From Euglena gracilis (Eukaryota): a stretch of DNA of 64,000 bases. Position 1 is the stretch's first letter, and the number at the start of each line of letters is the position of its first letter. Under the pieces are notes generated by a model. That model was not told the DNA's origin, did no database searches, and saw only the letters and a list, made by a program, of their open reading frames with translations. A program made the translations under genes and the position numbers. The stretch is from contig CP154954.1 of assembly GCA_039621445.1 (NCBI GenBank), positions 32,837,455 to 32,901,454 on the forward strand. Reading direction: 5' to 3'. Below are positions 1-54,100 of this stretch, piece after piece.

Positions 1-790
1 ATTGCGGGAAATTACAGAAATTGCGGAAAATTGCTGAAATTGCAGAAAAATTGCGGGTATCAATTTCCCCCCCCCTGCCCTGCCCCGGGTCCTGCAACGC
101 CAACCCCAGCCCGCCGGCCAGCTGCACGATCCCCGGCTGCGGCTACTCGCCCCCTCTTGGAGGGCGGGCCAGCCCCAGGGGGCAGGCCTGTCCCTCATCC
201 CCTCTGCCCCCTCTACACCGCCTCTGAGAACGCACTCGGCCTGCTGGGACCCGGGACCAACCCGTGCCGTTGCCCATGCCCGCTGCCGGGCAGCCGGTGT
301 CGGACGTGGCTCACCCCACTCATTCCCACCACCCCACCCCTGTACCACGCTCATCACGGAGCGGCATCCGGGCCCCGGGTAGGCCCCTTGAAGGCAGGGC
401 CATAGTGGCCCTGTCGACCTTGGGCATTGCAGTGATGTGGGGCACTTCTAATCCTAATCCTGATCCCACACCCCCCACACCCCCCACACCCCTCCCACAC
501 TTGACCAGTGTACGAGCCAGTTTTGCAATATATGGATGCCAGACATTTTCCAGTGGTGTTGGCTTGTTTTTGCTGATATTTAATTTCTCAATATGTTTTA
601 AAAAAAGCCATTGAAAAATTGCTAAAATGCCTGTGAAAAAATGGTCCTAACGTGTGAAATTTTCGGCCATGCCCAGGCCCCCACTTCCTCCCTGCTTTTG
701 GCCAGCAATTAGCCTAGAGGTGGTCTTTGGGGGGTGGGTTTTGACCAAAAAAAACTTCCTGTCTCGAGAGGACTGCACACCATGGCTCAC

Positions 791-3700
791 GGTCTGCCTG
801 TCGCAGCACATCGTCGTGGACATACCATTGCTTAGCGACCCGGGGGGGGGGGAGGGGGTCGCTTTCCACTCTGAAAAACCCAGTCAGTCACTTTACCCCC
901 CTTTACTTTACTTTACGGGGGGGGGGGATTGGCCACTCCTCAGGAGGCAATGAACATTTGCCAAAAAGTCTCAAAAAAATCCAAAAAAATTACAGCGCCT
1001 TCGGCGCCAGGCCACTCACATTTTCATTTTCGGGCCAACCCCACCCCCGGGGGGGGGGGGGCTCTTGGCGAAAAAAAACCAGTCAGTCACTCTGACTACT
1101 TTACCCGGGGGGTAAAGTAGGACAGGTGTTAAGCAATGGTATGGTCGTGGACCACGACGTCCACTTGGCCAGACACAATCGGGGACATGAAGAGTGGGAC
1201 CTCCCCCTCCCCTGTGGAAGAAGAAGGAAATACCCGTAATGAATAATTGTCGATCCATGTGTGCCGGGCTCGTATGCCACCACAATGCACCCCCTCCCGT
1301 GTCCGCCTAGCACTCAGGTCACAAAGGTTGCAGTTTGAACAGGGGGGCCGAACTTATTTGCGAAAACAGGACAAAGCCGGAAACGGTATTTTTAGGCTTT
1401 TCGGGGGGTTTCCCACAAGCATTGGCCGAAAGGACCTTCGTTGGCACCCTGCCGTAGCCAGTCCAGGATGAGCCCCTGCATCCCACACACCGGGTTTGAA
1501 CTTTGCCATCTTTTGGGATCCACAGACGTTGATGAGGATCGACTCCTCCTTGTTGGTGGACAACGGGCAGCGAAGGCCCCATCTGGCCACGGACCAAGTC
1601 TTGTGCAAAATTTGTCGAAACACATGTGATAGCAACGATTCCAGAGCCGAGGAACGCAAACAAACTTTGCGGCTGTCTGTGAACGTCCAGACAACGAAGC
1701 AGCCCGGTCAGGGGTGATATCAGCGTTGTCCGCTGGCGGGGAGTTCTGCGACGAATTCTTGAGAAAGTCTCTGCCACCCTGCAGTGAGCAATGGGCAGCA
1801 ATAATGGGGGGTGCGGGGGGGGGGGGAGGCGCAGTCCCCCCCCCCGGTTGCCCTAGGCCACCGGACCCCCCATTGGTGCCGTAGGCCTTGATAATGTCTG
1901 TCTGGGCTCCAGTTTTTCACAAAAAAAAGCTCAAAAATTTCAGGTTTTTGTGTTAGTGGTTTTTAGGGGGAGGGGGTGAAAAAAAATGCAAAGTCAAAAA
2001 ATTGGACCAAATTCTGGCACAGTCAAATTTTAATGACATTTTCACAATTTTTTGGATTTTCAAAGGCATTTTTTTTTTGCTTCAAAAACCTTTCAAAATC
2101 AAAACGGTGTGAAAAAATGCAGGTTTGGGGGGTTTTTGGGGGGACCTCCTACATGGTCCCAAAATGGGTCCCAAATACACCCGGCGCCTTTGGCGTTGGG
2201 AAAATTTTTGGGGGTCGAAAAACGAACAATGGGAAGGGGTGGTGGAGGGCCCCACCCATCATGCACGGGGTGGCCCCCCCCCGACCACCCTGGCTGTTTG
2301 GCCGATTCCCGTTCTGCCCTGGGGGTGTGGTGGGGGGTGTGGGGGGGGTGTGGTGTCGGGTGTGGGGGGGTGTGCAGGTAAATATCCAGTGTGGGCTCCA
2401 GTTTCTTGCAATGCCTCTCCAGATGAACACATGAACCGAACCCTGATTGACTTGCTGCTGTAATTCGACGTGGATGGGCAGACCATTTTGGGGGTGTTAA
2501 AAGGTTGTTCAAGGGGATTCCTGTTTTGGCCGTCGGAAATTTGCTTTGATTTTTGCCTCATTTCCAAGACATTCTGAAACCATCGTTTTGATTTTCCCAT
2601 AAATCCCTGATCTGAGTTATGGACATTTTCTGTTAGCACAACCCCAAATGCACCAGTTTGGGCCGGGTTTGACGACGCAGTCATTCCAGGCAAACGCTGT
2701 CCTGCGAACTGACGAAGCAGCGAACGAGACACGGTGATCGAAAGCATACCTCCAGCGAGCCCTTCACAAACGCACGATACTCCTCTGGGTTGCTGGCTGC
2801 AAGCTGGTCCCCTGCACCACCCCCTGGGCCGGGACTGGTTTGGCTGTCACTTTCCAAAACGATGTATGCTTTTTCGAGATGTTCCTTGGCGAGAAACAGA
2901 GTCAAAGAACGCAGGAAGTGGGGTTGGCCAATCCTGAGTTTGCAGTGCAAACACAGAACTGTTTTGTTCATCCACTTTGCACTTTTTTTTTCCCACTTTG
3001 CTCCCCTTTGTCGGGTGAATAGCGCCGGCCTGGCGGTCCCCAAATGGAGGGGATTCGGAAAGCCGGGATCTCAGGAACAGGAATAAAATTTTCGGGTTCA
3101 CCCCCACTGAGGCCAATGGGGGCGCCAATTTTTGCAAGATGCGCCTATTCCAAAATCGGCACAAAAGAACTGGAGAAAATTGGACTTTCTCAAAGTGCCG
3201 GGAAAAATTGTGGACAAAATTTTGTGCAGATTTTTTCCCATAACGATTTATCCCATTCAAGTCCCCCCCCCAAAAACCCCCCAGGGAGGGTTCAGCCAGC
3301 ACCTCTTTTCGGCAGGACCCCCTCGGCCCCCCCCCCCCGCGTTCTCATGAGGGGGACCCCCCTCATGAGAACTGTGGATTATCACCGTGCTGCCCTCTGG
3401 GGCCCTCTGGGAGAGGGCATTTCCAGACAACCAGGGGGGAGGGGCGACTCTATGTTGTGGCTCGATATTCTGGCAGAAAAAAGTCCCAAAATGTCCGCTA
3501 CACGAGCGGACATTTTGGGACTTTTTTCTGCCAGAATATCGATTCGTTTTATCGCTGAAAAATGTCCACAAAACGAGCCAAAACTGGGCCAAAATCTGCG
3601 GAAGAATGGGTCAGCAGAAAACAAAGTCATGGTTTGATGGGATCTTCCAAGGGCTTCGTTTGAGATAGCCGGACGTTTCCTTTTGGTTTTTTTTACAGTT

Positions 3701-4778
3701 GTGATTGTTCAAAAATATTTCGAGAATGGTGGGAATAAAAAAAATCACTAGAGCCCTGAAACCCTCTGCCAACTGCTGCGGCCCGAAAAAGGCATTATCA
3801 ACATTCATTTTTATAATTACAATTTACAACATTATGATATTATTGTAAACCCCCCCCAAATAATACCCCCTGGGGTATTATTTTTTCGCCCGAAGTCCCA
3901 GCCCGAGGGGGGGAGGTATTATTTGGGAGGGGTAATAGCACCCCAAAATTTTTCCAAATTTTTCGAAGTCCCGCAGAAGCCAAAATGGCGCCCTTTTGAC
4001 CCCCTTTGGGGCCAATTTTTGAGGTCAGATGATCCAGAAAAATCGATTTTTTTTGCAATTTGTTGTCAGAGATAGTGATTTTTACCTACATTTTCAGGTC
4101 AAAATCCGGGCCTTCGGCCCGAAATCAGGGGGGGGGGTATTATCCCGGTCGCCAAAGTCGGACCCCAAGGGGGGGGGTTATTTGGGGGGGGGGGGGAAGA
4201 CGCCTTGAAGACCCTCAAAAACCTTAAGGAACCGAATCAACTTTGGCCCAAAAAACCCTTAAAACGCCTTAAAATTGTCGTCCTGAATTTTTTTTGAATT
4301 TCGAGCAAAAAAGAAGTTGCAAAATCTCGGCAAAAACAGCCCACTCCAGAATAAAATGCTTTCTGGCATCGCTGAAACCAACACTCAAAAAGAAGGCGCT
4401 CTTGAACTGTTTGATTTTCAACCTGGGACCGACGTTGGTTTGATGCCCAGATGGCTCTTCGATCACCTTAAACCCCTTAAAAATTCTGAAAAATTCAAAA
4501 TGCCTTGAAAAAAAAACCCTGTAAAAAATTTGAAAATCTTCGCCTTAAAATGATGCCTGGTAGGGAGGTGCTGGTGGGAAAATTGGTGTTGAACCCCCTG
4601 GGGGGGGGGCGCCCTCCGGCTTAGAAATTCCTGGATCACCAACGTGCCCACAGTGCACCACTCCCAGCCCCACGACAGACAAGAATCCAGGCTGGATTGC
4701 GGTGCGACTGGGAAGGGGATGGTGGCGAAGGTACCGGAAGACCTCTTGCCCGACGAAGTCCGACCCAGGGACGTTCAT
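791..4778 (-). CDS. PIH1-domain protein, PIH1D2-like (R2TP/R2SP co-chaperone family); multi-exon, 3' end unresolved
   Basis: Hand-joined exons 4778-4728, 2809-2750, ~1779-1688, ~1577-1491, 1211-1147 and 815-~791 give MNVPGSDFVGQEVFRYL|DQLAASNPEEYRAFVKGSLE|GGRDFLK...ITPDRAAS|(C)LRCPLSTNKEESILINVCGSQKMAKFKPG|EGEVPLFMSPIVSGQVDVVVH|DDVLRQAD. This follows the PIH1D2 motif order as I recall it: LDDMAQSDPEGYEKFI, LFINLC, VPL, IDVAYNPDVL. Introns are both GT-AG and non-conventional. Further exons below 791 are likely but were not resolved. Confidence 0.7.
821..1143. mobile_element. hAT-like MITE inserted in the PIH1 coding sequence; predicted to be a non-conventional intron (minus strand 1146-816)
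   Basis: Perfect 14-bp TIR CATACCATTGCTTA at 821-834 and 1130-1143. Perfect 8-bp TSD GTCGTGGA at 813-820 and 1144-1151. Removing the element plus one TSD copy restores VDVVVH|DDVLRQ in frame. Confidence 0.85.
3462..3542. repeat. Perfect inverted repeat (38-bp arms, 5-nt loop) within PIH1 intron 1
   Basis: TCGATATTCTGGCAGAAAAAAGTCCCAAAATGTCCGCT, then ACACG, then the exact reverse complement. Confidence 0.9.
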
Positions 4779-5587
4779 CGCCCTAGTCTGCCATGAAGGC
4801 ACATCTGGAGAAAATGCAAGGGATGTCGTCCAGCTGTAAACCCCCCAAAATAACCTGGCGGGGCCCTTTCTCCTGCCGGGGGCCGATTAACCTGGTGGGG
4901 CGAGGGGCAAGAAAGATGGTTCCAGCAACCTGGCACCCCCCTTTTTAGGCGAAATTCCTTTATGGTGCTGCAAAAAGGGCCCAAATAACCTGGCGGGGGG
5001 GGGGGGCAGGGCCAAAAGTTGGTTCCAATAACCTGGCACCCCGCCATGGCATTTGGGGGTTTACAATCGGGGGTGGTCGTACACCCCTTACCTGCAACCC
5101 CCGACCGGGGGGGGGGGGGGGTCGTTGTGTAGGGGTAGGCGGGAGGGGGGAGAAATGGGGGAAAGGGGTCGAACCGGGGACATAATATTGTTTTTGACCC
5201 CAAATTTGCCCAGGCCAGCCTAAATCTGACCCATTTTGCCCATTCTTGGCCCATTTTTTGCAGACCTGAAAACGAAAAATCAGTTGTCGTATGGCCACCC
5301 TTCCGGCGGGCTGGACTCAGGGGCGCCTTAAAACCCCTGAAAAACCTTAAAAAAAGACCTTGAGGTTTTTGGCCAAGATGCCTTAAAAAGGTAAAAAAAA
5401 AACCATTAAAAGCCTGGAAAAAACACTCCTGGCAAAATAGCCGAAATCCAAGCAAAAAAGAAGTCGCATAACCTCGGCAAAAATAAACGAGTTCCGGAGA
5501 AAAAACGAATAGCTGCGGACCACGGACCAGTGATGGTTCAAAACACAATAGCTCGAGAGGGCCTTGAAGAACAAAGGTTGGCATTTC

Positions 5588-5643
5588 AGCCGAAACAGTT
5601 GGGTTTAGGCTGCTTAGCCGAAACAGTTGGGTTTAGGCTGCTT
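5588..5643. repeat. Two-copy ~29-bp tandem duplication
   Basis: AGCCGAAACAGTTGGGTTTAGGCTGCTT occurs twice in tandem. Confidence 0.85.
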
Positions 5644-6021
5644 TACCAACCCGGGGAGGTGCCCGGTGTTGTGGGGTGCCTGCCACAGATGGCACACCCC
5701 CCGGGGGGTCAGTCGACCAAACAAGCAAACGAGAACTGGTGTGGGCAATGCTGGCCCCAGCATCAGGGAACAGGATAGAGTACACCAATACAGGTTGGTG
5801 GTGAGTGAGTGCCAAAAAACACTGCGAACCAGGACCTGAAAATCGCACCGGGTCATCAACGGTTACAGAGCTGCGGTGCAGTGGATCGGAGACCAGGTCA
5901 TAGAAGGCGGCCGCCTCAACTGGCACAAGGATGCGAACCTTGGCACCGCCAGGCAGACCCGAGCCGTGTGAGGCCAGAGTCGGGAAACGTCGTCGGGAGA
6001 CGCTGCGCCGCACCGCTGACC

Positions 6022-9000
6022 TCACCAGTCGTCGTCCTCCGCCACCTTCCGCTTGACGACTATGCTGGGGCCGGTGGAGCCCCCGCCGCCGCCGCCGATC
6101 TGCTCCAGGAGGGTGATGAGCTGGTCCTCCTCCACTGGGGGGCCCTGACAGCCCCCACTCCCCGCCGCCGCCAGGGCACGGATGCATCGCCCTCCGGTTC
6201 ACACGCACAGACCCAAACGCACCATACAACCCCAACCCCAAATATTATTACATATAAAATAGTAAACAAATAGTTATAATAAAAAACACATATGACATAC
6301 AATATTCAATAGTGTGTGCACCACACACACCACCCCCTCCGGCTCATTGGCCTGGCCACGTTGGCATCCTGCCCGGGTCAAACTTGGGAGGCCGACGTCA
6401 CTTGGGGTGGCGGCGAGCTCCATCCATCGATGCACCGCAAACATGGTCGCCGCCAAACCGCCACCCAAACCAAAGCCAGGGCTGGGCGGAGCTGACCGCG
6501 GGAGACGGCCTGGAGGAGGAGGTTCTCGACTTGCCGGGCCTTGTCGGGCTTCACGGTGGAAATGCGGCCGAGCCGCTCTCGAGCCTCAGGGGAGAGGACG
6601 GCCAATGGCAGGGCGGCCTCGCAGTGTGTTTCAAATGGCATTCCAGGTCCGTTCACCAACTGATCTGTACTAATGCCAAACGTAAGCGTTGCTAATAAAC
6701 CCCATCGTTTACACTGACGGGTCGGTATGTCACCTTTCTTTCTTGAAATCCTGGGGAGGGGGGTCAGTAAAAATGGGTCAAGATACTCGACTGGAGGGGG
6801 GGGAAGGGACGAGGCAGCGTGCATTCATCCTGTCCCCTGTCCCTAATAAACAAAAGTCCATCGGTTTGCGTTTTGCCAAAATAGACATTGGGGTGAGCCT
6901 GAGTGCTTTGTTGTGTTTATCCCTGTGTTTTCTTGTGCTTACCTTGCTGTGCACCGGTGCAAAAGAGGGGGTCGGTGTAGATGGATTTCTTCTGATTTTT
7001 CTGTGGTCGGCCGGGGTCGATCTAAATGGGTTCTCCAAAAATTGGGTTTTATTGTTGGGCTCGTTGCTAGAACCTGTAGGAGTCTTGCCTTTTGGGGCCT
7101 AATTTGCCTTTTCTGACTTACTTTGTACATTGTATCGTGCATTTTCCCTCGACCAACCGGGCCCAGAATACCATCGTTTTATCCAAAAAAGAATAAACTT
7201 CCTCCATATACTTATTAAAAAAGACTCCATAAACTTCCTCCAAAAAAGGCTAAAAATAAACTTCCTTGGACATGTCAGACCATCATACTTTAAAAATAGG
7301 GGCCCACCAGCCTCGGTGGGGGGGGTGTAGGGGGGGTGTTGGGGGGGATGTGGGCGGGGGGTGTGGTGGGTGTGGGGGCGAATTTGCTAGTGGAGGCGCC
7401 AATTTTTGCAACACCTGCACCGCCGAAGGCGGCTGTCCCTCTAAATTTAATATCCCTGCCAGCATCACCGCACCAAGAAACACTTCGTGCCAATTTGCGC
7501 AGCCTTGGGAGCTGGCTTGCACTGTCCCGACCCCAGACTGAATGCAACGTGCAACGAAAGCTACCCACCGCCGAGCGGAGGCGGGGGCCCTGGGGAGCAG
7601 CATGGACTTCCGCTTCTCCTCCTGCTCCTGCTGCTGCTCCTGCTGCAGCTGTTGCTGCTCCACCTGCTGCTGGAACGGCGCCAGGGTCCGCGTCGGGGAG
7701 GCGGGTGGGGCTGGGTAGGAAGGCCGGGGGGGGGGGGGGCTGGTCGACCTCTCCCCACACCCAAGAGGTGTGGGAAAGGATGACCGCCCACCCACCAAAA
7801 TTGCAATTTGCAGAGAAAAAATCTGCTGGCGCTGAAGGAAAACGTTGACCAAAAACCGGCGCCCCTAGATATGAGAAGGGATCACTGCCCATTGCCCACC
7901 CCTTGGGCTATTGATCCGGTGAGGTTCCGCCAAAGCCCTCTGGGCATCAACTGTCCCCAAGCCTCCTTGGAGGTTGACTGTCACCCACCGGTCAAAAAAT
8001 GTTTCATGGAATCTTCTCCAGAGTATCCTGCACATATGCCAACCGCCAGGGGGGCTTCCAAAAACCAGCCACCCCCTCCCCCAAGGGGGGTCGGCCACTC
8101 TGGAATCCAAGCAGGGGGTATTGTTTTCATTAGTTTTCAAATTTTAACTATTTTAATGGTGCCTTTAAAATACTTGGCCGAAATCCCTTAAAAAATCTGA
8201 AAAAATCATTCTGGGAATTTTTTTGAAATTCGAGCTTAAAATGAAGGGCGCAAAAATCTCGGCAAGAAACAAACCAATTCCAGGAAAAGGCGATTTCTGG
8301 CATTTCGCTGGAACATTCTCCGTCCACCCAAACCCGAAATAATGGGATTTTCGACATTTTTGATTTTGTGCCCGGTTCGATGCCAGGATGGACCTGGATT
8401 TCCCTTGTAAAATGGACCTTAAAACTTCAAAAAACGTCTTAAAAACCTTGAAGGAAATAGAAAATTTCTTAAGAAATAATATCCCTGAACCCAAGAGAGA
8501 TTTCACAACAAACTTGAAAAAAGTAAAACCTTTTTTCCCGGCGCCTTCGGTGCCAAATCAAGTGGGGTTTTCTGTTGACCCCCTGGGGGGGGGGGGAGGG
8601 AATCCGGGCCAAAACCAGTTAGTCACGCTGAAAAAATCAGTCACCCACCCCCCCAGAGGGAGTCAGCCAGTGACTAAGTCATTGTGTCTTTGACAGCAAC
8701 CTCCTGGAGGCCTGGGCGTCGCTTAACGCCGCCCCCCCCCCCCCGAGAGGTTCCACCTCAGAGGAATTGGAAAATCAGGGTTGGCTGGAATAAGACTGCT
8801 GGCTGATCTTCAGGGATATTTCTTTTCAGGACCATGAAGACCCACCCGGGGGCACTCCCCCCCACAGGGGAGGGGGGGAAGGAATTCCAGGGGACCTCCT
8901 TTTGGGGTCAATTCTGGAAGGAAATAATTAAAAGGAGGGTGCCCCCACCGTGGAGCGGGTTTGCGGACCAACCTTTTAAGAATCCCTCCCCCACCACCCC

Positions 9001-9286
9001 CATGGGAGGGTGGGAATTGGCCCAACTCGCAGTCGAACCAGACACCAAAGATTGAAACCCAAATGCAAACACCAAAAATGCAAACAAATGCGAATTATGC
9101 AAAAAAATGAGTTTTAGCCCCAACTTCGAGCTGGAGAACCTGTTGTGTCCCGTTTTTGCCATTTTTGGGGGGTCAAAATTCTACAACCGACCAGCTGCCC
9201 TTCCCTTCAGCAAGCTAAATAAATGCAAATCTGGTCCCCCGAAAAAGAACCCTGGACGCGGCATGGGTGTCCGCGTCGACGGGCAT
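6022..9286 (-). CDS. PDCD5: Programmed cell death protein 5 (PDCD5/TFAR19 family), ~115 aa, 4 exons, all 3 introns non-conventional
   Basis: Exons 9286-9258, 7676-7596, 6603-6488 and 6143-6022 (348 nt) give MPVDADTHAAFQQQVEQQQLQQEQQQEQEEKRKSMLLAVLSPEARERLGRISTVKPDKARQVENLLLQAVSRGQLRPPVEEDQLITLLEQIGGGGGGSTGPSIVVKRKVAEDDDW*. The PDCD5 signature L...ARERL..I..VKP.KA..VEN.L.Q....GQL is clear. Alternative in-frame ATGs lie at 9292 and 9298. Confidence 0.9.
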
Positions 9287-10634
9287 ATTCATTTTCATGG
9301 TGGTTTGCCTGGGGTGGGCCAGCACAGGACACTCAACAGTGGTTGTGTGTTCTTCTGTCCTGTCACCATGCAGGCGTCATGGACGTAGGGTGCAAAAAGA
9401 GTGCATTGCTTTCAAAAGGTCACACATCCCAGAACAATTCTGCCTTGCCGATGCACACAAGAGAGATGCTGGGACAAAATTATTCTTTTTAAGGACTGCC
9501 CTGCAGAGCTGTGAAAGTAGTCTGTTGCACATTCATTTCAATCACAACTATGTGTCAATTGCGACCCTTCCAATGAAAGATACACACACACACACACAAA
9601 ATGGCCATATTTTGGCAAAAAAAAGGAAACGTATTTCTGGCATCCTTGGACCATCCGCCATTTACCCTTGTTGTTTTCGGCTTCTTTTGTTTATTGATCT
9701 TGTTTGAGACCCCGGAGCAGCCGTTGGGTGCCCTATGACCCACCACAACCAACCCATGGTCCACCACTGGTTTCATGTTTGGCCCCAAGGGGGCCGATCC
9801 AGGGGGAGGGAGGTCCTTAAAGAATAAAAAAAACAGTATAGAATTCTGCAGTCCCAGCACACTCAACCAAAGGCACACAGGAAGAGGTTGAAAAATGACC
9901 ATTTTCGGTTAAAATAGGTCAACATTTGGGGGGAAATGATTCCTGCAACCTTGGATCATCGCCCATCCACTCAAAACGTCCATAAAAACACGTCCCTTGC
10001 GTTCAGGGGTGGGGGTTGCGGCTTCAGGTGTGCCCAGAAAGGGCGCAGAAAAAGTCTGCCGCTGCGCTGTTACAGAGGGATTTTCATGGGACTCCTTCAA
10101 TTGGGTTTTCAGCACACTGTGAGGTTTGCGGCATTTTGTTGGCATGATGTTTTTGTGTTTCATCACCATTTTTGGTGGTTTGAATGTAACCCACCCTGAA
10201 TATAAGCAACCGGTTGCTCGTATCTGGGTTTCCAAAATCTGCCTGTTGGGGCTTTTTATATATGTTTTTTATAGTTTTTATATTTTTTTTTATTTGGCTA
10301 ACGCGGCTTTTTTCTGCCATTCCAATGCATCATAATGAAAACCAACCAACCAACCAACCAACCAACCAACCTAATGCAAACTCCTGCACAGCCAGTCAGG
10401 GGTTGCTTGTGTTTGGATGTCGGCCCATAGCCGACCAAAGGGTTGCTGATATTTGGGCTGATAGGGAGGGGATGGTTATATGTGGGGTGGGTGGTTGGCC
10501 CCAAATGGACGGGGTTACGGACGTGGAGGGTTATGATTTGCGGGGTTTATTTGAAGGGGGCAGCTGCGGACCGCTTTTCTGGTACATTTTGGAATGATGG
10601 AGATCCGGCACTTCTGGGGGCCCGGTTGGGTTGG

Positions 10635-12120: not shown

Positions 12121-13079
12121 AACGGCGAATGGGGGGTGATAGAGGGCCTCCAGGGATACATTTCGTCAGTGGGACACTTCCGGAAATAATGTACGTTTTC
12201 TCGAGATATTTTCGAAAAATCGATTTTTTGACTGATTTTTGGACCCTGGCGAAATGGCAGAGTCAGAAGAGGGGGGGGGCGGCCTATTCTACCCAGTTTG
12301 GACCCCTTCGAGTTAGGGGTCATATGGCGGTGATTCGGAAACTAGAAATCCAGTCGCTCGCAACTGAAATAAAATTCTGGGAACCGGGTGGGGGTCATGG
12401 TGATAATCCGCGGTTTTCACGGTCTACTCAGGGGTGGGGGGGGGTTCCACCCCCTTTTCCCTGGTGGTAAGCTTCGCTCTTACTCTAAAGAGATAAGAGT
12501 TCAGCGACTGGGGGGGGGGGGTGGGGGGACCCCCCTACCACCTACGTCATATCTGTGGAGATTCCCATACAACCCTGGGGCCTGGTCTGGGAATCGGGGG
12601 GGGGGGGAGGAGGTTCACTTAACTGAATCTGAATGGGGGGTTTGCCGACGTTTTTCGATATTTTCTGTAAAACTTGGGGAGGGAATGCAAAGAACGATTG
12701 GGGCGAGGAAATTTGCGTTCATTATTGGCAAACCATCAACTCTCACCGAAATGACCAGCCATAATCATAATCATAAGGTTAAACCTCACTCCAAGAAATA
12801 CAGGGCCAACTTGTCAAACACCGGACCCTGGTAACACCACTGCCCTCCCCAAATAATATTGTGGTGTCGGGTTTGCTGGACTCTCTTGAAACTGTTTCTG
12901 TTGTCTTTTTCCTGTTCATAAATAAGCATTTCTGTGTTCACCCATCAGTGGGGTTGGTTCAGACTGTGCAAGAACTTCATTGCTGCGCGGGGGTGAGCAG
13001 CAGGTGAGCGAATGGCACCCCGATGCCGCCTTCGTGTGACGGGTAAGGGGAGGAACGGGGTTTGCTGGGAGGCGGTGTG

Positions 13080-19099: not shown

Positions 19100-22000
19100 T
19101 CACGGCGGCACCCGGAGGGCGTTGGCCAGCTGGTGGAGGGCGACGTTCAGCCGCTCGAGGGGGGCCTCGGCGGTGGGGTCCGCTGGGAGGTGGACTGATA
19201 GACCCGTGCAGGGCTCCAGGGCGGCCAGCTCCAGCAGCCACGCCTGCGGCAGGAGGACGGTCGGCCCCACCAACCCGTGCCATTGATTTCTAAAACTTTG
19301 CCATTTTCTGACATGGAAATTTTTTCATGATTCTGGCAATTGCCATGGCCAGCAAAATGCAAATGAAGCCTCACGGGAGGTCGGCCTGGCTCCGCAAATG
19401 ACACCTCTCTGTTGTTTGTTCTCTGGAAAAATGCATGGTTTGATAACCTCCTCCAACAAAAACCAGTCACCGTTTGAAGGCCAGTCGCCCACTCCACCCC
19501 CCCCCCCTGGGGGTCAGGATTGCACAGGCAAAAATGACTCCAAATAACTGGATTTCAGCCAACTTTCCAAGACTTTTCCGCCTTGGCCATTTTCGGCCAA
19601 TTCTGACGGACCCCACCCCCTGGGGGTCCCGGAGCAAAAAAAGAAAGCCACTTTGAAAACCAGTCCGTCACCCCCCGGGGGGTGGAGTCAGACACAGACC
19701 TTGGCAATCTGGTATGGTCATAACACACGGTCTGTGGGGGGGGGGGCAGACCTGCCAATTCTGCTCCAACTGCATTTCCATGCAGGCACACCCGGCGGGT
19801 GCTGACGAAGAGGGGCGTGAGGCCGCGCAGGCGGACGTGCTTCTCAACCTTCAACAACAGGGCGGCCAGCAGGTCCACGCGCCGGGCCGACTGGGAGGTG
19901 CGGGGGGGCCACGGAAGCCGACGGCTGCGCCAGCCATTGGAGGTCGTCTTGTTCCACCCCCACCCCCCTCCCCCCCCCGGGGAAGTTCGGCATAAAAGCG
20001 GTGGGGGGGCTCTTTGGGGGAGGCCCCCCCAACAGATTGAATTGTTGCCCTGACCCACTTGCTTGGGCGGCAACAAAGGCACGGAAGGGTTTCCCTCAGG
20101 CTGGTGCTTACCAACCGGGGGGGGTGAGGGTGCCTGCCCCCAGCAGGCACACCCCCCGGGGGGGGGGTGGGTTCCGGGGGGGGGACCGAGAAAATTTTCA
20201 TTGAAAATGGCCTTTTCCGGGCTCCTGGCGCCTTCGGCGCCGGGGCCGGAGGGGGGTGCCTGCTATGGGCAGGCACCTGCCAAAACCCTACTCCCCCCCC
20301 CCGGGGGGTCGGATGGGTGCTTACCCCTAGAACCCCCCCCCCCGTGGGGTAGGTACCCGACTAAGCACAAGCCTGGTTTCCCTCTCGCCTGCCTTGATGA
20401 TTCATCCCTCATCCCCATTTCGTCACAGGCGGACATATCCACCAGAAACGATGCAGGGTGACACGTCCAGAAAGGAAGAGACTATGACCTCGCATTTTGG
20501 ACCTGCCTTTCCGGGGTATTTAAACTTCGTTCATAGCAAAAAGGCAGCCCTGTTCATTTTCATCGGAATTGCCCAGAACAAGACTTTTCTATCACAAAAA
20601 TGATTAAAAGATCGAAAAGTTATTTTGGACTTTGGCTTCCATAGAGGGTGGCGATGTCAAACATTTCACATTTTGTGCAAAAATTGGGGTAAAACCCGTC
20701 CCAAATATAAACCCCCCGTTTTTATATTTGGGCGGAAATTCCAAGACCCCCAGGGGGGGGTTTATACTTGTGGGGGCTTTTATATTCGGTCGGAAATACC
20801 AACTTCCTGGCGGGATCCAGTATTCACTTTTTTGGTCCAAAATCACAAATACGCCCACCCTTGGGGGTACAAATATTTCACTTTTCGGGCGAAGGAGCAA
20901 ATTTCACATGTTTTTGGTAAAAATTGTTCCCAAATCTGCCAAAAACCACAATTTCAGGAGATATTTTGTCGGAACTTTTTCCTTCCGGTGCTTCGCGCTG
21001 GAGAGGGGTTTTATATTCGGGCAGGATATCAAGGTCCTCAGGGGGGGGTGTTTATATTTGGGGGGTTTTTGTATTCGGGGGGGGGGTTAAAATTTGGGGG
21101 GTTTACTCTATCATTGGCGGTCATGTCAACTGGCCTTGAAATACCCCACTGTTTGTGCGTACTACTGCAGGACTCACGCCCTTAAAGATTCCTTGTTCCC
21201 CTGCACAATTTTTCGGAGCCAACAGTGCCCCTGTAGGATTCCTCAACCCCGGGGAAGGGGGTCCTTAAGCAAAAAAAATTCTGTTCCAGCACATTCAATG
21301 CAAAATCCGCTGGACAAATGGCCGAAAAAACGGCCGCATTTTGGCCAAAAGCTGCATTCCCGGTGGTTCGGGGCCAACGCCGGCGGCACACACCGCCACC
21401 CGGGCCACCCACAACTGCCGCCGCTCAGCCCACGGGGCGCAAAAGTCACCGGCGGCCCACACCCGCTCCTCGAGGCGCAGCAGCGCACTCTGTGCAGAGA
21501 AAGCAAACAGGGGTGTGAGAAAGCCAACTGCACACGTGTCCGGGAGCGAGTGCCGGGAGTTCTCCATCTGGTGGCCATCCCTCATTCAGCTGGGAGCAGG
21601 GGATTTCTTAAGGAACTCTTGGGGGGGGGGAGGAGGCGGTCCAGTCCAGGGGTTTTCCCAAGCTGGATGGACCCCTACCGGGGGGGGGGGCAGCCAGCCA
21701 GCACCTTTTCTCCAGCCAGCACCTCCCAGCCAGTCCGCTTTATTTCAGCGGACCCCCCCGGGGTCCGCTGAAGAAAAGTTCGGGCTGGACCGAAATTTTT
21801 TTTTTGAAATTTCGAAAAAAAAATTCGAAATTTTGGAAAGAGGCGTCAAAAATGGCCAAAAATGGCAGTTCAGGGTGGTTTCACCTCCAGTTTTTGGATG
21901 CAAAATGCCAACCCAGCTGGATTTGTGCTTTTTTGGGGTATATTTTTGGGGGTACTAGCTCCCAGCTTGCCGGACCCCTCCTGGACCCACCCCTGGGAGG

Positions 22001-25000
22001 GGGGGTTCCAAAAGCACCTTGTTTCAAGCCAGCACCTTTTTTCAGCAGGTCTGTGGGACCCCCCCCCCTGGGGGTCCTTGAGAAAACCCCTGGTCCAGTC
22101 AGCCAGCTGGAAAAAGGTGCGCTGACCCCCATTTTAGTAGGGGTATTCCAGGTTCCAGGGGTCCTACTGGCTGCTGGGCTGGCCCCAGCTGTGACTCAAA
22201 ACAGGCAAAAATCCCAAATCTGTCCGGGGTGGAAATTCTTAGCCAAATTTTTGAGGTGAAGACACAACACCCAAAAAGCCATTTCTGGGTGTTTGAAAAT
22301 TATTTGGCCTATCCTTGCTTCCCCAGGCAAGAGAAACTGTGTTTCCACTTGAGCCCAAATGGGAGCTGCTGGCTGGAAAAAAGGTGCTGTCTGGCTGGAC
22401 CCCCAAGAGTTCTGGGTCCAAAGGATTCACTTGTCATCCCCCCCCCGTTTGGGGTCACAGGGGAATCAAACCACCCACCACTTTTTTGAAAACCCACCCA
22501 TGCACGCCTCTCCCCCCACGGGGGGTCCGTCCACACCCCGGGGGGGTTGGGGTGTGCATGTGCCATGGGCCGGAATTTTCAAAACGATTTGGCAAATTCT
22601 TAGAGGGTTTTGGGTGGGACCCAAACATGGATTTCAGGGGTGCAAAGGCCAGAACATTTATTTGGTGTCTCCATTCTTAAAAAAGGGATGCCCAATTAAT
22701 AATAATGATCGTCCACTCGGACAAAAAATGGTTGTTTAAATTGGTCAGGCTCCGAAATGCACCTGTTGTAATGGCTGCAATCTTGTGCTCCTTGATTTTG
22801 CTTTTACAAAAAATCCAATCCTTGTCTTTAGCGAATTTGTTGTTAAATTCCAATTGATCCAACCTATTTCGCTTACGGTGAAAAAAGACACCTTTTTCGC
22901 AAGGGAAACCATAATTGATTTGGAGAAATTCCTGATTGGACGTGATGCACTGCAGAATATATCTTCCCCGTGCACAGGTGGGAAACATTCTCGACGCAGC
23001 GCATCGCTCACCGCCCCTCTCGGCAGCGCGGGTGCCGGCACCTGAAGACCGTCCATCGAGAGCATCAACGACGCCCGCCGCTCGTCCTTCTGCAGGGAGC
23101 TGCGCAGCGCCAGGCCCAGCTCTGTGCAGACCACCGCTGCCAGCAGGGACCGGACCCACTCCGCCGCCATGAAGGGCCGGGAGGCCACCACTGTGGGGGG
23201 GGGGGGCAGGGATGCCACAAGAACAGAAGCTGCACAGCAAACAGAGCCTCCATCAGCACTCCTTGAAGTTTTGGGGTAAACATTTTCCGGTGGGAGACGA
23301 TTGGAGAAGCCAATGCACTTAAAAGGCAGTTTTTTCACCAGTGCCAGCAGGAACAAAGATCACAGGGGAAACCTGAAGACAGGTGTGAAAAAAATCAGTA
23401 TTCTCGGAGGCAGACGACCACACTCTGAAGAGCATCCAGCGCAGTTGGCCAACCCCCGACGGCCTCTCGCCATGCTCCCTGCAAAACCCCTCCACCCCTC
23501 CCCTGCCAGGGTCTTGGCAGGGGTGGGGTGCCCGGCTCTGCTGCGGACACACCGAGGAGGGCGGCGTAGGAGAGCCGGCGCAGCCGCCCCACGCACGGCA
23601 CGGAGCAGGCCTGCGGGCCGCCGATGACCAACGCCAGCAGCGCCGCGGCCACTGGGCCGGGGACGGGCACACGCAAAAGGTGCGCACGGAGCGGCGCTGC
23701 CCGGGCGATGCCGGGGGGGGGGGGCAGGGCCGCCAGGCCGCTGTGTGTTGTTCTGGGAAACGTACGAAAGCTGTTGTTGCCCTTCGGGCGGATGTTTGTT
23801 TCTGGGGTTCCATGAGCGTTGCAGCCGTTTCGTGAACTCCACCCGTGTCATATCTTTGTTTTGCCTTACGGCTCTGGGAACTGACTGGCGAAGCGGACGT
23901 ATTGTGTAAGCTATGCTGCCTCTGCGATGGCCATCACAAGGGCGCCCGAGTTTCATCGAACGGCATGTGCCATGGACGTATTTCCCGCAACGACAGCGGC
24001 AGCAGCAGCAGCAGCAACAACAACAAAACACGACATGGAAAAAAAAAGGCAGCTGCACCACCCAGGGTTGCCACCAGAATAACCCTATGGGGTATCGATG
24101 CGTTGGTTGGAGGATATTAAGACACTTACATTTATTACTTTTTGGATTTTGGTCACAGATGGAGACAAGAAATGAGTCAGGTTTTGTGTGTTCGGGCTGG
24201 AAGAAAGAAACCTGAGTGTTGGCGACATTCCGGCCAAGAATACTAAACCAGACCCCATTCCCATTTCACGCAATAACAGAGCTTCGGTTAAGCCGAAATG
24301 GACTCCATTCCCCAGGGATTACGATGTATTTGCAGCGTGTGAAATTTTGGTGGTGTAACACAGATTTTGATTTTCTTCGCCAGTTGCTTTTTGCTGAAGA
24401 AAGAAGGGGCCCAGAGGGGCACGGAGGTGGGACCTCCTCCACACTTCACCCCGATCTCAGAGTTCAGTGAGGTTTGAGGTTAGAACAGGGAGTGGGGAGA
24501 GCACACCCGTCATCCAAGCCGCTGCATCGCTCCTCAGCGCGGGGAGAGTGCGGACGGCCACCAACAGCGCCAGGCACAGATGCAAGAAGGCGTTCAGACC
24601 ACGGCTGGAGTGGTCTCCGGCGGCCGTGCGGTGGGCCTCCCCCTCTGGACGCCCCCCCCGAATCAGCCAAAGCTTCCGCACGGTCCTTGAGGAGCAAAAA
24701 AAACTGGCGTTCGGCTCATTCCACTTCCAACCCAGGGAGAAGACGACAACATTTGAACTGCATTGGCGAAGACAGGTCCGCTTTGGCAAAAAACAAGCTG
24801 ACTTCCGGCATCCGTGGACGAGTTGGCCATCCATCTGCAACCTCAAAAGAAGGCGGGTTTGAAGTTTTTAACTTTCCACCCCATTGGCCCTCTGGTCAAA
24901 GTGGGGTCCTCAAAGGCCGGTCCTTGGTGAAAAAACTACCCGTCCCTTGAAAGCCAGCCGGCTTGGTGCACCGAGGGCTTTGCACCAACCCGGCTCATTC

Positions 25001-39100: not shown

Positions 39101-42100
39101 AAGTTTTCAGCTTGGTGTTTTGCACATGTGCAAAATTGGATTATATTGAGGTTTCACATGAGCATTTTGGTCCGAAAATCCCCCCAAAATGAGGCTTATC
39201 ATCATTTCATGCTTGAAAATAGGATTTCAGCAGTTCCCCCTCACCAGAAAGGCCTTGAAATTGGGGGGGGGTTCTTTTGGATTTTTTGCTTGGTGGGCCC
39301 GTGGGTGGCCTTCTTCTTTGGAGGAGCTTGGTTCATACATCTCTTTAAGGACCCCGGGGGGGGTTGCTGGGCTAGGGCTAGAAATTTGGGCTGGCTGGGG
39401 GGGGGGCGGGCTGGACCCCGGCTGGACCCGAACCGGGGCGAGCTGGACTGAAATCGGAAAAATGTCCAAAAATGACCTGCAGAACACAGTTTTGAAAAAA
39501 TGATGCATCTGAAACCCCCCAAAAATGCCCCAAACACCCCCCAAACCCCATTTTTGGCCACTTTTGAACACAGTTTTTCAAAAAATTTCGGCGCTTCGTG
39601 CCGAAAATTTTTGGGCTGGACCCCCAAAAAAGGGGCTGGCTAGCTGGGCTAGCAGCAACCCCCCCCCCGGGGGGGGTGCTGCTGCGGCTGGGCTGGGCCC
39701 AAATCGGGGCTGGCTGCAGCCGCCCCCCCCCCGGGGGGGGTTCGCAAAACCTTAGAGAGATGTATGGCTTGGTTAGCACAAATACTGACACAAAATCCAT
39801 CCTCCTGATCGTCGACATTATCCTGCCTATAAATAAAGAAACTTGAAGTGGAAAAGCTTGGAACGAGGCTTCCACAGAGAAGAGGGAGGAAATTGGGATC
39901 AAATCGAGGCGACTTGTTTTGTTGATTGCAGGATGGAATGGCAGAGGGGCCCACCCAAGCAGAGCGGCAGACTCAGCAGCGCCCCCTCGGCCGCTTTCAG
40001 GTGCATGTGTTTCCCACGATGACCGCACTGGATGGCGCTTGCAGGGCGGCAATGCCGCGGGGAGACACGCTTCAGGGGAAGCGGGAAGCGGAAGCGTTTG
40101 TGGTGTGGGGGATGTCCCTTTTCTCCAAACGTTGAGAACTGGGTTTACCGGGAATGATGGCTGCAGAGCCACTCCATTTTGGAGAGGGGCCGTTCAGCGA
40201 AAAAAAAATCTGTCCCGTGGCTGAATGGGGAACCATGGCGCCTGCCGACCCTTCGGGTGAGTCTTACTGCTACCGTTCTGGTGAGTCTTACTGCTGCCCT
40301 TCTGGTGAGGAGTCTTGAGGACACTTTTACACGACGAATCCGCCTGTGCTGTGGTCCAGCCCCGAGGCACGGTGGAGCTTTCGGCCGCCCTTCTCGCCGG
40401 CCGCTCTGCTGCCGCCCTGGGGGTGCTCCAGCCGCGGCAGGCTGTGGGCAGGTTCACACGCCGGCAGCAGCGCCCGCAGCAGGCGGTCCAGGGACCGGCA
40501 CTGCTCCTTCAGCAGGCCGAAGTGGAGGGCCCCGATCTCGCGAACCCACTGCAGGGGGTGGGCGGGGCGGTCCTAAAAAACCCTGTCCCGGCACAGTGGA
40601 AAAGATGGCCGTGGATGCGAACGTTCTGGCAAAACCGTGTTGACAGTGGCGACTGGGGCCGGTGATGCCAACAGGTTTTGTTCTGCACATCGAGAAAAAC
40701 CTTCTCATTAGACGCCAGAAGGAATCAAAGGTATAAAATTAAGCACATGGACCAAAAGAACAAAAGGGTGGATTCCACCGAAGCTGGGTTGGAGGGACAG
40801 CAAAATGCTGCGCACTTGCGCAACGGCCACACACAAATGCTTAAAAACGAGTTCCTCAGTTACCGAGGCCCGGAACAGTTTCAGCCAATGCCTGCTTCAA
40901 CACCAAAGAGAAATAACTCCCAGGGAACGAAAGGGGTGACCCAAGAACTGGGGCGAATTTCGCCCTCGCGGAGGGGGAATCCTGTTTCACTGGGAAGAAA
41001 CGAAATCACCCGAGACCAAAGACCCACACTCAGAGAACAAAGCGTGCCTTCTGTTTTCACCCGATGCCTGTTTTTTGGGGGTGGTCGCAGCAGCATGGGA
41101 CAAACACCGGGCATGCCAGATGACTCCTGGGAAGACCCGCATCACCGCACACCTCCGCCATCGAGGCCTCCCCCTGGGCCTGCAGTTGCCGACAAGGCTG
41201 TGTGGATGGGGGGTCAGATCCCCCCACCACCACAGCACCGTGCAGGAGAAAATTCCTTCGGCGCCGAAAGAAAAATTTGCTGCTTTTTAACCTGGTGGTG
41301 GTGGGGGGGGTCCACTCCCCACCACAGGATTGAGGGGGTTGACCCCCCCTCTCCCCCCACCATAGGGTTTCGAGGAGTCCCCCACAGCCCTGGGTGCAGG
41401 GCGAGGGAATTGAGGGTGGAGAGGTGCCGCTCGTACTGCTGCTCGTGCCGCCGATCGATGGCCGCCCGGGTGGGCAGCTGCAGCGCGATCTGCTTCGCCT
41501 GATTGGGGGGGGGGGTTGAGGAACGGAAGGTTTGAGGGCAGGCGTGGGCAGCTGCACTTCGAAACGAACCTGGTTGGACTCAACTGCGGGATTTGACTCA
41601 TCCTTTAGGGAAGTGTGAAGGATTTCGAATGAGGGAGAGGACTTATTTTGCTTTTGGCAGGTGGGGGGAAAGTGCGCTGGCCCAGCGTCGGAAAAAAATG
41701 CGTATGGGTTTGCCGCCCAAATATAAAGCCCCCCCTGCTGGGAAGCCAGACGATGATGTCATTCAGGAAAAGTTGAAAAATTTTAGGTGGATGCAGCATT
41801 TTTTTTTCACCAAAAATGCTTCATTTTGGATAATAATTGCCCATTTTTGCGGAAAATGGGAGGTACAAAACGGAAATTTGGAATAAACTTAGTATTTTTC
41901 CACAATTAAAGGCCGCCGAAGGTCATAGAGGCCATCCAAATAAAGTTTGTTCCCCCCCCCCCAAATATAAAGCCCCCCCCCTGAGGGTTGAAATCCCGTC
42001 AAAATATAAAGCCGGGGGTCTTATATTTGGGGGGTTTTTACTTTTTTTTCGCCACAGGCCAGCTATCGTCATGAGCTGACTCCCCCCCTCCAACTGGCTT

Positions 42101-51100: not shown

Positions 51101-54100
51101 TTTTTGTCCAAAATGGAGTATATATGGTGAAAAAATTGTTGTATCCACCCATTTCCCCCCTGCTTTTCCCGATCATTCAGGCGGCAAAACCAAACCCCCC
51201 CAGGGGGCTTCGTTTTTTTGGGGGGCTTTACATTTTGGGGCTAAACATTTGGGGGTTTACAAGCCGACTAACCGGCAAGGCTTGCATGGGGGATGGACAG
51301 GACTCGGCGGAGCACCTGCAGGTCCTCCAGCAGCGCCCTCGTGCGCCACAGCGTGAGGGCCACCACGATGCCGCACAGCGCCGCCGGGACGTCCAGCGCC
51401 ACGAGGCCCAGGAAGTGGCGGCAGGGCCCGCCGGGATGGTCCGGGGCACGGCACGCCTTGGCACAGTCATCCGCATCGGGACCCAGACCAGCACATGTGC
51501 GTGTCGAGGCACACATGCGGACACATATTACACAGACCCGAACTCATTTCTGTGGTTGGGTACAGCCCAGCCGCAGCCTCGGGGGTTCCGCTGGGCGGTG
51601 GGTCTGGCGGGCTCTGGAGGGTAAAACACGATGGCCTTGCACTGGAACAGCTCTCCGTCCCGCCAGGGGCCCCGCGCCTCGGCCAGCACCCGGGGGAGGC
51701 GGTACCCCCCCACCCCACCAGCGCGATGGGCAGCAGCAGGACGTCGAACACCTGGGGATGTGTGTGTTGTGTGTGTGTGTGTGTGTCTGTCGGTGTGTGT
51801 GTGCGTGTGTGTGTGTGTCTGTCTCTGTGTGTGTCTGTGTGTGTGTGTGTGTCTGTCTGTCTGTGTGTGTGTCTGTGTGTGTGTGTGTCTGTCTGTGTGT
51901 GTGTGTCTTTCTCTGTGCGTGTGTGTGTGTGTGTGTCTGTCTGTGTGTGTGTGTGTGTGTGTCTGTCTGTGTGTGTGTGTCTGTGTGTGTGTGTGTCTGT
52001 CTGTGTGTGTGTGTGTGTGTGTGCGCGCGCACGTATGTCCCAACACTGGAAGGGAACCGTTTTCCAGCACTTTGCGAGTTGTTTCCACCGCAGTCCCCCC
52101 GTTCTCCAACACACATGCCCGCAGGGAAAACCCCTGAGGTGGCCCCCTGACCCCTGTAGCCCCCGGCCGTGTCCCCCAAACCCAAGATTCCAAAAAAAAA
52201 GCCTCGGGTGCTTTGGAACCTTTGGGAATTTGGGGTTCTGTCTGTTTGGGGTGGCAGGCATAGTGCCGCAAAATTGGCCCAAATGGCCATTCACTGCTGA
52301 GGTGTGAGGTTGCCCTGGGTGGGTTCCAATTCGAGGCGGCATCCCATCAGGAGATGCAACACACGCACGACCACCCCTCCGCGGCGGACACCACATGGCT
52401 GTTAGGGTGGGGACCACACAATTTTTTACCGACCTCGGGGGGGGGTCACCTCCACTTTTTGAAAAACCAGTCAATCACTTTTTTTCGGGAAACCAGTCAG
52501 TCACTACCCCCCCCCCTGGGGGGTCAGCCACTCTGGAATCCAAAGAAAATTTGACCAAAAACGTGGAAAAAAGGCCAAACATTTTCCGTCACCTTCGGCG
52601 CCGGGTCACTTTAGTGGTTTTTTGCCGACCCCCCCCCCCGAGGGGGGAGGGGGTCCGGGCTAAAAACCAGTCAGTCAATCGAAAAAACCAGTCACCCCCC
52701 GGGGGGGGGGGGGAAGGTCGGCCAGTGCTTAAGCAATTGTCTGGTGGGGACAGGGGGTGCACACCGTGTGGCAGAAATACTTCCAGATGAGGGGGCGGAA
52801 CGACGGCGTCAGGTTGTCCTGGTGCCGCTCGTGCTGGCGGGACCGGCGCCGGGCCTCAAGGAAGAACAGGACGGCCTCCCAGGGGCACAGCGCAGGGGCA
52901 GAGCCGGGGTGCTGCAGGTAACTGCAAGGGAGGACTGTGGCAGGCTGGCAGGCATGGGTGGGCTGTGGGAGGGGCGGCTCCGCCCCCGGTGGCAGGATGC
53001 AGAGGACCATCACGACGAATGGGACGTCCAGCACCGCGAGCCAGAACTGCACGATGCACTGCCAGCGGAGGTTGTGGTTGTAGCCCGGCTCCTGCCACGG
53101 GGGAAAGGAGGAGGCGGCGGCGCAGGCAGGCGGGAAGAAAAGCAAACACAGAACACCAGCGGAAAGACCTGAAAATAGGATCTCCGGCAAACACATGCAA
53201 ATCTTGGAGGAATAAACTTCCAGGTGACAAGGAACAAAAAAGGAAAAAAAATTACAAATACACACACATACGTAAAAAACAGCAGTGGGAAGCAGGGGAT
53301 CTGCACACCTGACCCCACCACTCCCACAGGTTCAGCAGGAGGTCGTAGCACCGCCACGTCAGGAGGGTGGGGAGGAGGTGCACCACCGCAACCCAGTCGA
53401 AGAGCGTGTAGCAGAACTGCGTCACGCCCAACTGCCGCAGCCTCCTGTGAGGACAAACCAGGATGCTTTTTGAAAAATGCCTTTAAAATTCCTCAAACAA
53501 CCCAAAGAAAAATCACTCTGGAAAATGCAACTGAGAAAAAATGCAAAACATAAAATCTCGGCAAAAACAAGCCAACTATTGGGAAAAAATGCTTTCTGGA
53601 ATCGCTGGATCGCTGGATCATTGTCCATCCATCCACCCAAACTCGAAGAAATGGGGTTTCCGACTTTTGTCTCATTTCGGACCCCATTCGATGCCTGGAC
53701 CGCCCTTGGACCACCCCTGGGCAATAGAACTTAAACAGCCGTAAATTTTTTCACTTTTTAAAAAAATGGCTGGGAGAGACCCGACCGTGCTGAGGGGTCG
53801 GCGTCGAATCAAAGCGTGCGTGGGCAGCTTTGGCCCCGGAGGGCCTTGCCAGAGGCGGCAGCGGCCTCCCGCCTTTCACTCCAGCAGAGGGAAGGAAAGG
53901 CACACCACCGAAGGCCGTTCTCATCGTCCTCTGCTGCCTGCCGCAAGACATCGGCAGGCCACGACGGCGCCGCCAACCTTGCGAGGCTGGAATGTGGGGG
54001 CGGCCGACCGCCCATCGGTCGGCTGAAAACCCGGTGCTTCCCCCAACCTCGTAGGACTCGGGGGTCTGAGTTGAAATGTCAACGTGAGGCCGGGTTGCAC

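Follow-up and report, generated by a model that had tools for sequence, protein, structure and literature searches.

A transposon-like element in a PIH1-like gene of Euglena gracilis, probably removed from RNA as a nonconventional intron together with one copy of its 8-bp target-site duplication

In a stretch of 64,000 nucleotides of the Euglena gracilis genome (contig CP154954.1, positions 32,837,455 to 32,901,454; hereafter the window, with coordinates counted from its first letter), a coding exon of a minus-strand gene, here called PIH1-like, is interrupted by a short non-coding element that has inverted repeats at its termini (terminal inverted repeats, TIRs) and a perfect 8-bp target-site duplication. 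Our analyses indicate that this is very probably an insertion of the MITE type (miniature inverted-repeat transposable element), which is excised from the pre-mRNA as a nonconventional intron and takes one copy of the duplication with it. The removal of exactly 331 nt, the length of the element plus one duplication copy, was observed directly in RNA.

The MITE-like element occupies positions 821..1143 (323 bp). Its left TIR (821..834, 14 nt) starts with CAT, and the right TIR (1130..1143) is complementary to it at 14/14 positions. The two copies of the duplication lie at 813..820, reading GTCGTGGA on the plus strand and TCCACGAC in the sense of the gene, and at 1144..1151, where GTCGTGGA is repeated perfectly over its 8 bp. 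The direct repeat around the element comes to 9 nt in total, the ninth base being a fortuitous match beyond the 8-bp duplication. In the centre of the element is a GC hairpin motif of the GCGCC-TTCG-GCGCC type (994..1008), which is common to other elements of the window. The first-pass annotation, made from the letters alone, had described a 323-bp element at 813-1151 with perfect 14-bp TIRs and a perfect 8-bp duplication, and this anatomy proved correct throughout. Allowing up to 2 mismatches, the TIR 14-mer occurs 3 times in the window against an expectation of 0.24, and 0/100 shuffles reached 3. Because of this excess, and of the window-wide excess of TIR elements with 8-bp repeats described below, chance is an unlikely explanation for the element at 821-1143.

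To follow the fate of the element in RNA, positions 1-20000 of the window were compared with four public runs: two sets of transcript-like contigs (X1 and X2), one set of raw RNA reads (X21), and one set of contigs (X20) that was judged DNA-like from its even cover, at about 40x, of introns and intergenic stretches. A joint from 812 to 1144, skipping 331 nt, was found in one X1 contig (depth 377.8), in one X2 contig (depth 372.7) and in 12 raw reads of X21 (8 + 4), which began at 12 distinct places. The spliced mRNA reads ...GTGGTCCACGACGAT...; both this sequence and the 331-nt gap had been set beforehand as a test of the proposed splicing, and both were seen in X1, X2 and X21. The joined form occurs in 0 contigs of the DNA-like X20, a count that does not exclude an empty allele, since contigs drop rare variants. 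No back-joint of a circular intron was present among the 15 joints listed, 629 further joints being on record. In addition, when six window exons were joined according to the RNA joints, their translation was identical at 125/125 residues to EG_transcript_17147 (P0001, 296 aa), a protein of a public E. gracilis transcript set that had been retrieved by a protein search with a single exon. The RNA joints and this transcript protein thus bear out the earlier proposal that the element is removed together with exactly one copy of its duplication.

The six exons all lie on the minus strand. The first, with the start codon (MNVPG...), is at 4728..4805, the contigs stopping near 4805; it is followed by exons at 2749..2809 and 1710..1777, each supported by RNA joints and the joined translation, and at 1490..1584, supported by RNA joints and the transcript protein. 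Upstream of the element is a 67-nt exon (1144..1210) that ends in ...GEGEVPLFMSPIVSGQVDVVVHD, and downstream of it a 34-nt exon (779..812) encoding D115-W125; the exon that follows lies beyond the start of the window. Besides the 331-nt intron, the gene contains two conventional and two further nonconventional introns. On the minus strand the flanks of the element read ...VDVVVHD and DVLRQADREPW, and the insertion point falls between D114 and D115 of the host protein. The surrounding block (Q107 V108 D109, V111 V112 H113 and D115 V116 L117 R118) is invariant in 3/3 aligned orthologues, in agreement with the first-pass statement that a conserved VDVVVH/DDVL motif is interrupted. The host gene is transcribed and its frame is open, which makes a pseudogene unlikely; the transcription, the open frame and the 125/125 residues shared with the transcript protein answer an objection raised when the splicing was first proposed.

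In searches against Pfam, the PIH1 N-terminal domain scored 15.6 bits over residues 108-146 (cut-off 24) and the PIH1_CS domain 19.1 bits (cut-off 23.3), both below threshold although in the right order, whereas 25/30 named matches of the language-model features of the protein were PIH1 clusters, with a top score of 0.94. A search of solved structures with EG_transcript_17147 and its 3-row alignment gave no match. What had been called a PIH1 gene is accordingly termed PIH1-like here, because both Pfam domains are sub-threshold while the language-model matches are mostly PIH1. Past position 779, the X1 and X2 contigs read ...FKQELIELFT where EG_transcript_17147 has ...FKQELIDLFT (residue 131), a difference of allele or strain.

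The geometry of the removed segment is that of a nonconventional intron. Ten cut registers yield the identical mRNA, and 0/10 have GT-AG, GC-AG or AT-AC ends, in line with the first-pass classification as non-conventional. One register alone, k=3 of 10, pairs positions +4..+6 (CAT) with -8..-6 (ATG). It places the 331-nt intron at 816..1146 on the minus strand, in sense tccac|GAC-CAT...ATG-TCCAC|gac, with pyrimidine|purine at both junctions and a downstream exon that begins GAC. The cut register actually used would therefore be k=3 if the intron follows the usual pairing. The stem that starts from +4/-6 in this register is 14 bp long, and in the minimum-energy RNA fold (-144.1 kcal/mol, z = -6.1) the intron is closed by the TIR stem. 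Register k=3 leaves 3 + 5 = 8 nt outside the stem; the arithmetic on which the original proposal rested thus holds in this register, the sole one with the +4..+6/-8..-6 pairing. The expected positions do pair, but the triplet is CAT/ATG rather than the CAG/CTG that had been given as typical. All 5 non-GT-AG joints in 1-20000, to which a neighbouring gene contributes two more beyond those of the host gene, have a minus-sense stem that starts from +4/-6, with lengths of 14, 7, 11, 7 and 3 bp. At the 2651-nt non-GT-AG joint 6605-9255, the stem in the standard register is a weak one of 3 bp, and by eye a CAGGG/CCCTG pairing with an offset of 1 + 4 nt is better. This intron also contains, near 8031-8690, what appears by eye to be a decayed look-alike of the 821-1143 element.

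Elements of comparable structure are enriched in the window. The whole window was scanned for 12-nt inverted ends (at most 2 mismatches, low-complexity ends excluded) directly next to a perfect direct repeat, whose length d was varied. At d = 8 there were 9 cases, whereas 4 dinucleotide shuffles averaged 0.5; d = 9 gave none, and the 7 cases at d = 7 were mostly simple repeats. The 8-bp class starts with CAG or CAT in 7/9 cases, an enrichment that supports the first-pass interpretation. When a further copy at 52407-52751 is added to these seven, the ends of the 8 CA-start elements are CAGG in 5, CATAC in 2 and CACAC in 1. This further copy (52407..52751) is a second, diverged member of the family of the 821-1143 element, 329 bp long, flanked by a separate perfect duplication of 8 bp (GTGGGGAC) and having imperfect ends that match at 11/14 positions; the two are 70.5% identical over 146 nt and have sub-terminal and central modules in common. 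The other inverted-end elements include one of 279 bp at 20089..20383 (ends CAGGCT..., duplication GTTTCCCT), one of 446 bp at 21639..22100 (CAGGGG..., GTCCAGTC) and one of 433 bp at 39326..39774 (CATACA..., GCTTGGTT), each with an 8-bp duplication. Three more are nested in one another (47509-49680 > 48099-49618 > 48305-48588), and each has its own perfect 8-bp duplication. The nested elements measure 2156 bp, 1504 bp and 268 bp, and a third occurrence of GTGGTCGA was noted at 47548. The element at 39334-39766 was seen to have the same CATAC... ends as the element of the spliced intron.

A common architecture runs through these elements, namely the end, then GACC, C/G runs and a central hairpin of the GCGCC-TTCG-GCGCC type. 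The hairpin motif is matched at 12 places in the window when as many as 3 mismatches are allowed, against 2.52 expected. The motif (GGCGCC-TTCG-GCGCC type) stands mid-element in many cases and also occurs within ordinary introns, with sites at 994, 2183, 8540, 20227, 36961, 47974, 48477 and 52588; when ends were sought under looser criteria near 11 sites of the motif, just four elements were recovered, all already known. The depth of X20 at position 973, in the element core, is 79,786 as compared with about 40 on single-copy stretches, which points to a high-copy class; it is not a count of whole copies, because a DNA joint 1091->8086 shows that modules are common to different elements. A scan for open frames across the sites of 8 elements, emptied in silico, told little, since the DNA is GC-rich and even at the 813-1151 site the true frame was not the longest one, and the orientation of the elements by their A/T runs gave mixed counts. 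A scan of metagenome contigs with the left-end 20-mer returned 1 match (L001), which lies in GC-rich, bacterial-looking coding DNA by eye and was set aside as a chance match.

Taken together, these observations can be accommodated by a simple course of events. A non-autonomous DNA transposon, a MITE with TIRs, would have entered the coding exon of the PIH1-like gene, presumably by the action of a transposase, and 8 bp of target sequence would have been duplicated in the process. Pairing of the 14-nt ends in the pre-mRNA would draw the exon edges together, and the euglenid machinery for nonconventional introns would cut outside the stem at fixed distances, 3 nt away at the 5' end and 5 nt away at the 3' end. 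Because 3 + 5 equals the length of the 8-bp duplication, the element and exactly one duplication copy (331 nt) would be excised, and the pre-insertion frame would be restored without a scar. The pathway would be the published non-spliceosomal one, for which knock-in experiments have defined the distances: 3 nt before the 5' triplet, strictly, and 5 nt after the 3' triplet, where 6 are tolerated (PMC12501133). The same knock-ins required a purine at the start of the downstream exon and a CDG/CH'G motif (PMC12501133). The earlier claim that any such insertion would be phenotypically silent can thus be kept in a conditional form, in which silence depends on a purine at place 6 of the target and on the end motif (PMC12501133).

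Several points weigh against this interpretation. The assignment of X1 and X2 as RNA rests on the guess of a tool. The mRNA does not reveal which cut register is used, because the intron is slidable and all 10 registers give the same product. The stem triplet CAT/ATG falls outside the published CDG/CH'G requirement; in terms of the full motif, 5'-N3-CDG ... CH'G-N5-6 | R, the triplets of this intron fail, whereas the 3/5-nt spacers and the exon-start purine fit (PMC12501133). The four other nonconventional introns of the region keep only 1, 1, 4 and 2 of the 8 octamer letters, which fits decay in older introns and proves nothing. Neither an empty site nor an insertion polymorphism was seen in the X20 contigs. 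As regards the family, the window showed no second copy that was nearly identical and had the same ends, the only clear relative of 821-1143 being the copy of 70.5% identity; a protein search with the flank of this 52.4-kb copy gave 5 candidates, none scored, and no transcript protein was found. In addition, the DNA joint 1091->8086 is present in 6 contigs, and the high depth of the core may be due to sub-modules held in common and not to complete copies.

An alternative explanation is that the insertion is polymorphic, so that the mRNA derives from an allele or paralogue lacking the element and no splicing takes place at the site. The RNA data do not distinguish pre-mRNA transcribed here from RNA that originates at other copies of the repeat, and the RNA runs and the assembly may differ in strain, as several single-letter differences (e.g., at 2777) would allow. 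However, the joined form is absent from the contigs of X20, the same junction recurs in three runs, each from a different study, and in an independent fourth set of transcripts, and the element fits the published geometry of introns known to be spliced (PMC12501133). We therefore regard polymorphism as highly improbable. It is also conceivable that a nonconventional intron was gained at this site without a transposase, by the repair of a double-strand break or by the reverse splicing of a circular intron RNA, in which case the inverted ends would be there solely to provide the stem that splicing requires. Break repair has been offered for the 8-nt repeats of a new gapC intron (PMC4770533), excised nonconventional introns have been reported to form circles of full length (as cited in PMC11282704 and PMC12501133), and none of the frames inspected in the window suggested a transposase (60 frames of at least 170 aa, by eye). 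Against such a gain, the 64-kb window holds 8 elements whose inverted ends are abutted by repeats of one common length (8 bp); three of them are nested, and selection for splicing is unlikely to have acted on the inner ones. The scan moreover found no 9-bp case, and its 7-bp cases are simple repeats. Reverse splicing would carry an old flank along rather than duplicate each new target. We thus consider a gain without transposase improbable, and a MITE-type insertion remains the explanation that we favor.

To which superfamily the element belongs is a separate question. hAT transposons classically combine CAG-type ends with a duplication of 8 bp, and their usual target pattern is nTnnnnAn. The elements of the window resemble hAT-type MITEs in their 8-bp duplication, their short TIRs starting with CA(G), their length of a few hundred bp and their lack of coding capacity; they differ in that the agreement in end motif and in target pattern is partial. 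The first-pass hAT label is a candidate assignment, for which only the length of the duplication fits. Whether the intron derives instead from a non-hAT transposon, either of another 8-bp-duplicating superfamily (P, Merlin, Mutator-like) or of an undescribed one, is in our judgement evenly balanced. The CAT... and CAC... ends depart from the usual hAT end motif, and the eight 8-bp targets match the usual pattern at T2 in 6/8 cases but at A7 in just 2/8, while the combination of 8-bp duplication and CAG-type ends argues for hAT. None of the 60 open frames of at least 170 aa in the window looked transposase-like on inspection by eye, which did not include a profile scan. For E. gracilis, two families of Merlin elements that make 8-bp duplications have been reported, which speaks for a non-hAT source; yet Merlin ends have a conserved terminal GG, as opposed to the CA starts of the window elements (PMC8101967).

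The age of the insertion is likewise less certain than first supposed. It had been called newborn, a description that we do not retain, as no empty site is known (0 joined contigs in X20) and the sole clear relative is 70.5% identical over 146 nt. The perfect 14-bp stem may have been kept by selection, and the youth of the insertion is attested by just 8 unconstrained letters.

If the arithmetic of this intron is general, it bears on the origin of the whole class. We put forward, as a tentative idea that we rate at somewhat below even, that most euglenid nonconventional introns stem from one class of transposon with 8-bp duplications and CAG...CTG ends. Were this true, the reason for the 3-nt and 5-nt spacers would be that their sum takes out one copy of the duplication, every insertion into an exon would be silent provided that place 6 of the target is a purine, and the junction letters (Y|R, C at +3 and R-A-C) would represent two copies of one preferred target. 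Published junctions have Y|R on both sides and R-A-C at the start of the downstream exon (55/55, 43/55 and 30/55; PMC4770533), and nonconventional introns have C at +3 (PMC11170887); the same junction rules on both sides are expected, because two copies of one duplicated target predict them. A bolder version of the idea is that the cutting machinery itself was derived from, or co-evolved with, that transposon.

The duplications of the window were also compared in their letters. On the plus strand, those of the CA-start elements (813-820, 20089-96, 21639-46, 39326-33, 47509-16, 48099-106, 48305-12 and 52407-14) start with G in 8/8 cases and with GT in 6/8, while the mirror place (last base C) shows the corresponding letter in 2/8. 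In minus-strand reading the last letter is C in 8/8 and the last two are AC in 6/8 cases, matching the published R-A-C at downstream exon starts. As the target of a symmetric transposase should be palindromic, this bias looks tied to the transcription strand or to the orientation of the elements.

Compared with the nonconventional introns already described in euglenids (Milanowski et al. 2014, 2016; Nomura et al. 2025), the intron in the PIH1-like gene shares the lack of GT-AG ends, the pairing from +4/-6, the 3/5-nt spacers, the pyrimidine|purine junctions, the purine at the exon start (GAC here) and the removal from mRNA. It differs in its CAT/ATG triplet, its unusually long perfect 14-bp stem and its full junction repeat of 8 (9) nt, and in that its body belongs to a repeat class found elsewhere with duplications of its own. 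The published code accounts for 61.2% of nonconventional introns, so that many lie outside it, and such introns make up 71.8% of all introns in E. agilis (PMC12501133). A close parallel is the strain-specific, new intron 4 of gapC in E. agilis, which is nonconventional, has eight-nucleotide direct repeats at its junctions and is taken as a recent gain; unlike the present case, its empty site is known from other strains, and its repeats were ascribed to break repair (PMC4770533). The intron described here, by contrast, shows TIRs, family members and other elements with 8-bp duplications, and has no known empty site. The introners of Micromonas, Aureococcus and dinoflagellates are similar in that short, non-autonomous TIR elements with target duplications turn into introns on insertion, and those of Amoebophrya also have non-canonical borders, inverted repeats of 8-20 nt and direct repeats that overlap the borders (PMC11282704, PMC7789003). 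Introners, however, have duplications of 3-5 nt, are mostly spliceosomal and take a splice site from the element or the duplication (PMC11282704, PMC7789003), whereas the window element has an 8-bp duplication and would be removed by the euglenid rule of a stem plus fixed offsets.

The idea of a MITE origin is not new. It was proposed for nonconventional introns in PMC3935182 and repeated in PMC11282704, PMC12501133 and PMC12621601, and "TSD-like" (target-site-duplication-like) junction repeats have been reported (PMC11282704). Nevertheless, the origin of these introns is still called unclear or a mystery (PMC4770533, PMC12501133), and in 2014 euglenid genomes were said to have yielded no identified transposable element so far (PMC3935182). 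In the passages of text that were searched, supplements and figures lying outside the search, we found no statement that the 3 + 5 spacers equal the length of the target duplication, no link to hAT, and no bounded or named MITE family shown to be spliced as a nonconventional intron. The present case unites a bounded, transposon-like element and its family relative with direct RNA evidence of exact removal and with an arithmetic for the +4/-6 offsets. It thereby offers a concrete example of how a nonconventional intron may arise from mobile DNA, which is of value for the open question of their origin, and shows that a natural CAT/ATG stem outside the published code is spliced. It also turns the MITE hypothesis into a countable prediction, namely a surplus of junction repeats 8 nt in length, declining with the age of the family, and intron ends that cluster into repeat families. 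The prediction applies to two published Euglena assemblies, and the end clusters would lead to the autonomous partner. As a whole, the interpretation first given to this locus is partly supported: it has held for the exact removal, the geometry and the enrichment within the window, and has been modified with respect to hAT, to the recent birth and to unconditional silence.

Some minor observations concern the surrounding transcripts and repeats. Contigs end near 4805 and 9309 with a loose G plus a run of A on the plus strand, and the positions at about 4805 and 9309 are likely to be the trans-splice acceptor sites of two neighboring minus-strand genes; the run of A fits what we take to be the T-rich 3' end of the spliced leader on the minus-sense mRNA. 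The raw reads of X21 pile up with long, loose poly-G/poly-C tails at 1806-1826, 12510-12528 and 19957-19978, which is probably an artefact of sequencing rather than biology. Finally, positions 10673-12673 form a very high-copy repeat block, in which the summed X20 depth reaches 677,863, as compared with about 40 on single-copy DNA, and many internal DNA joints are present.

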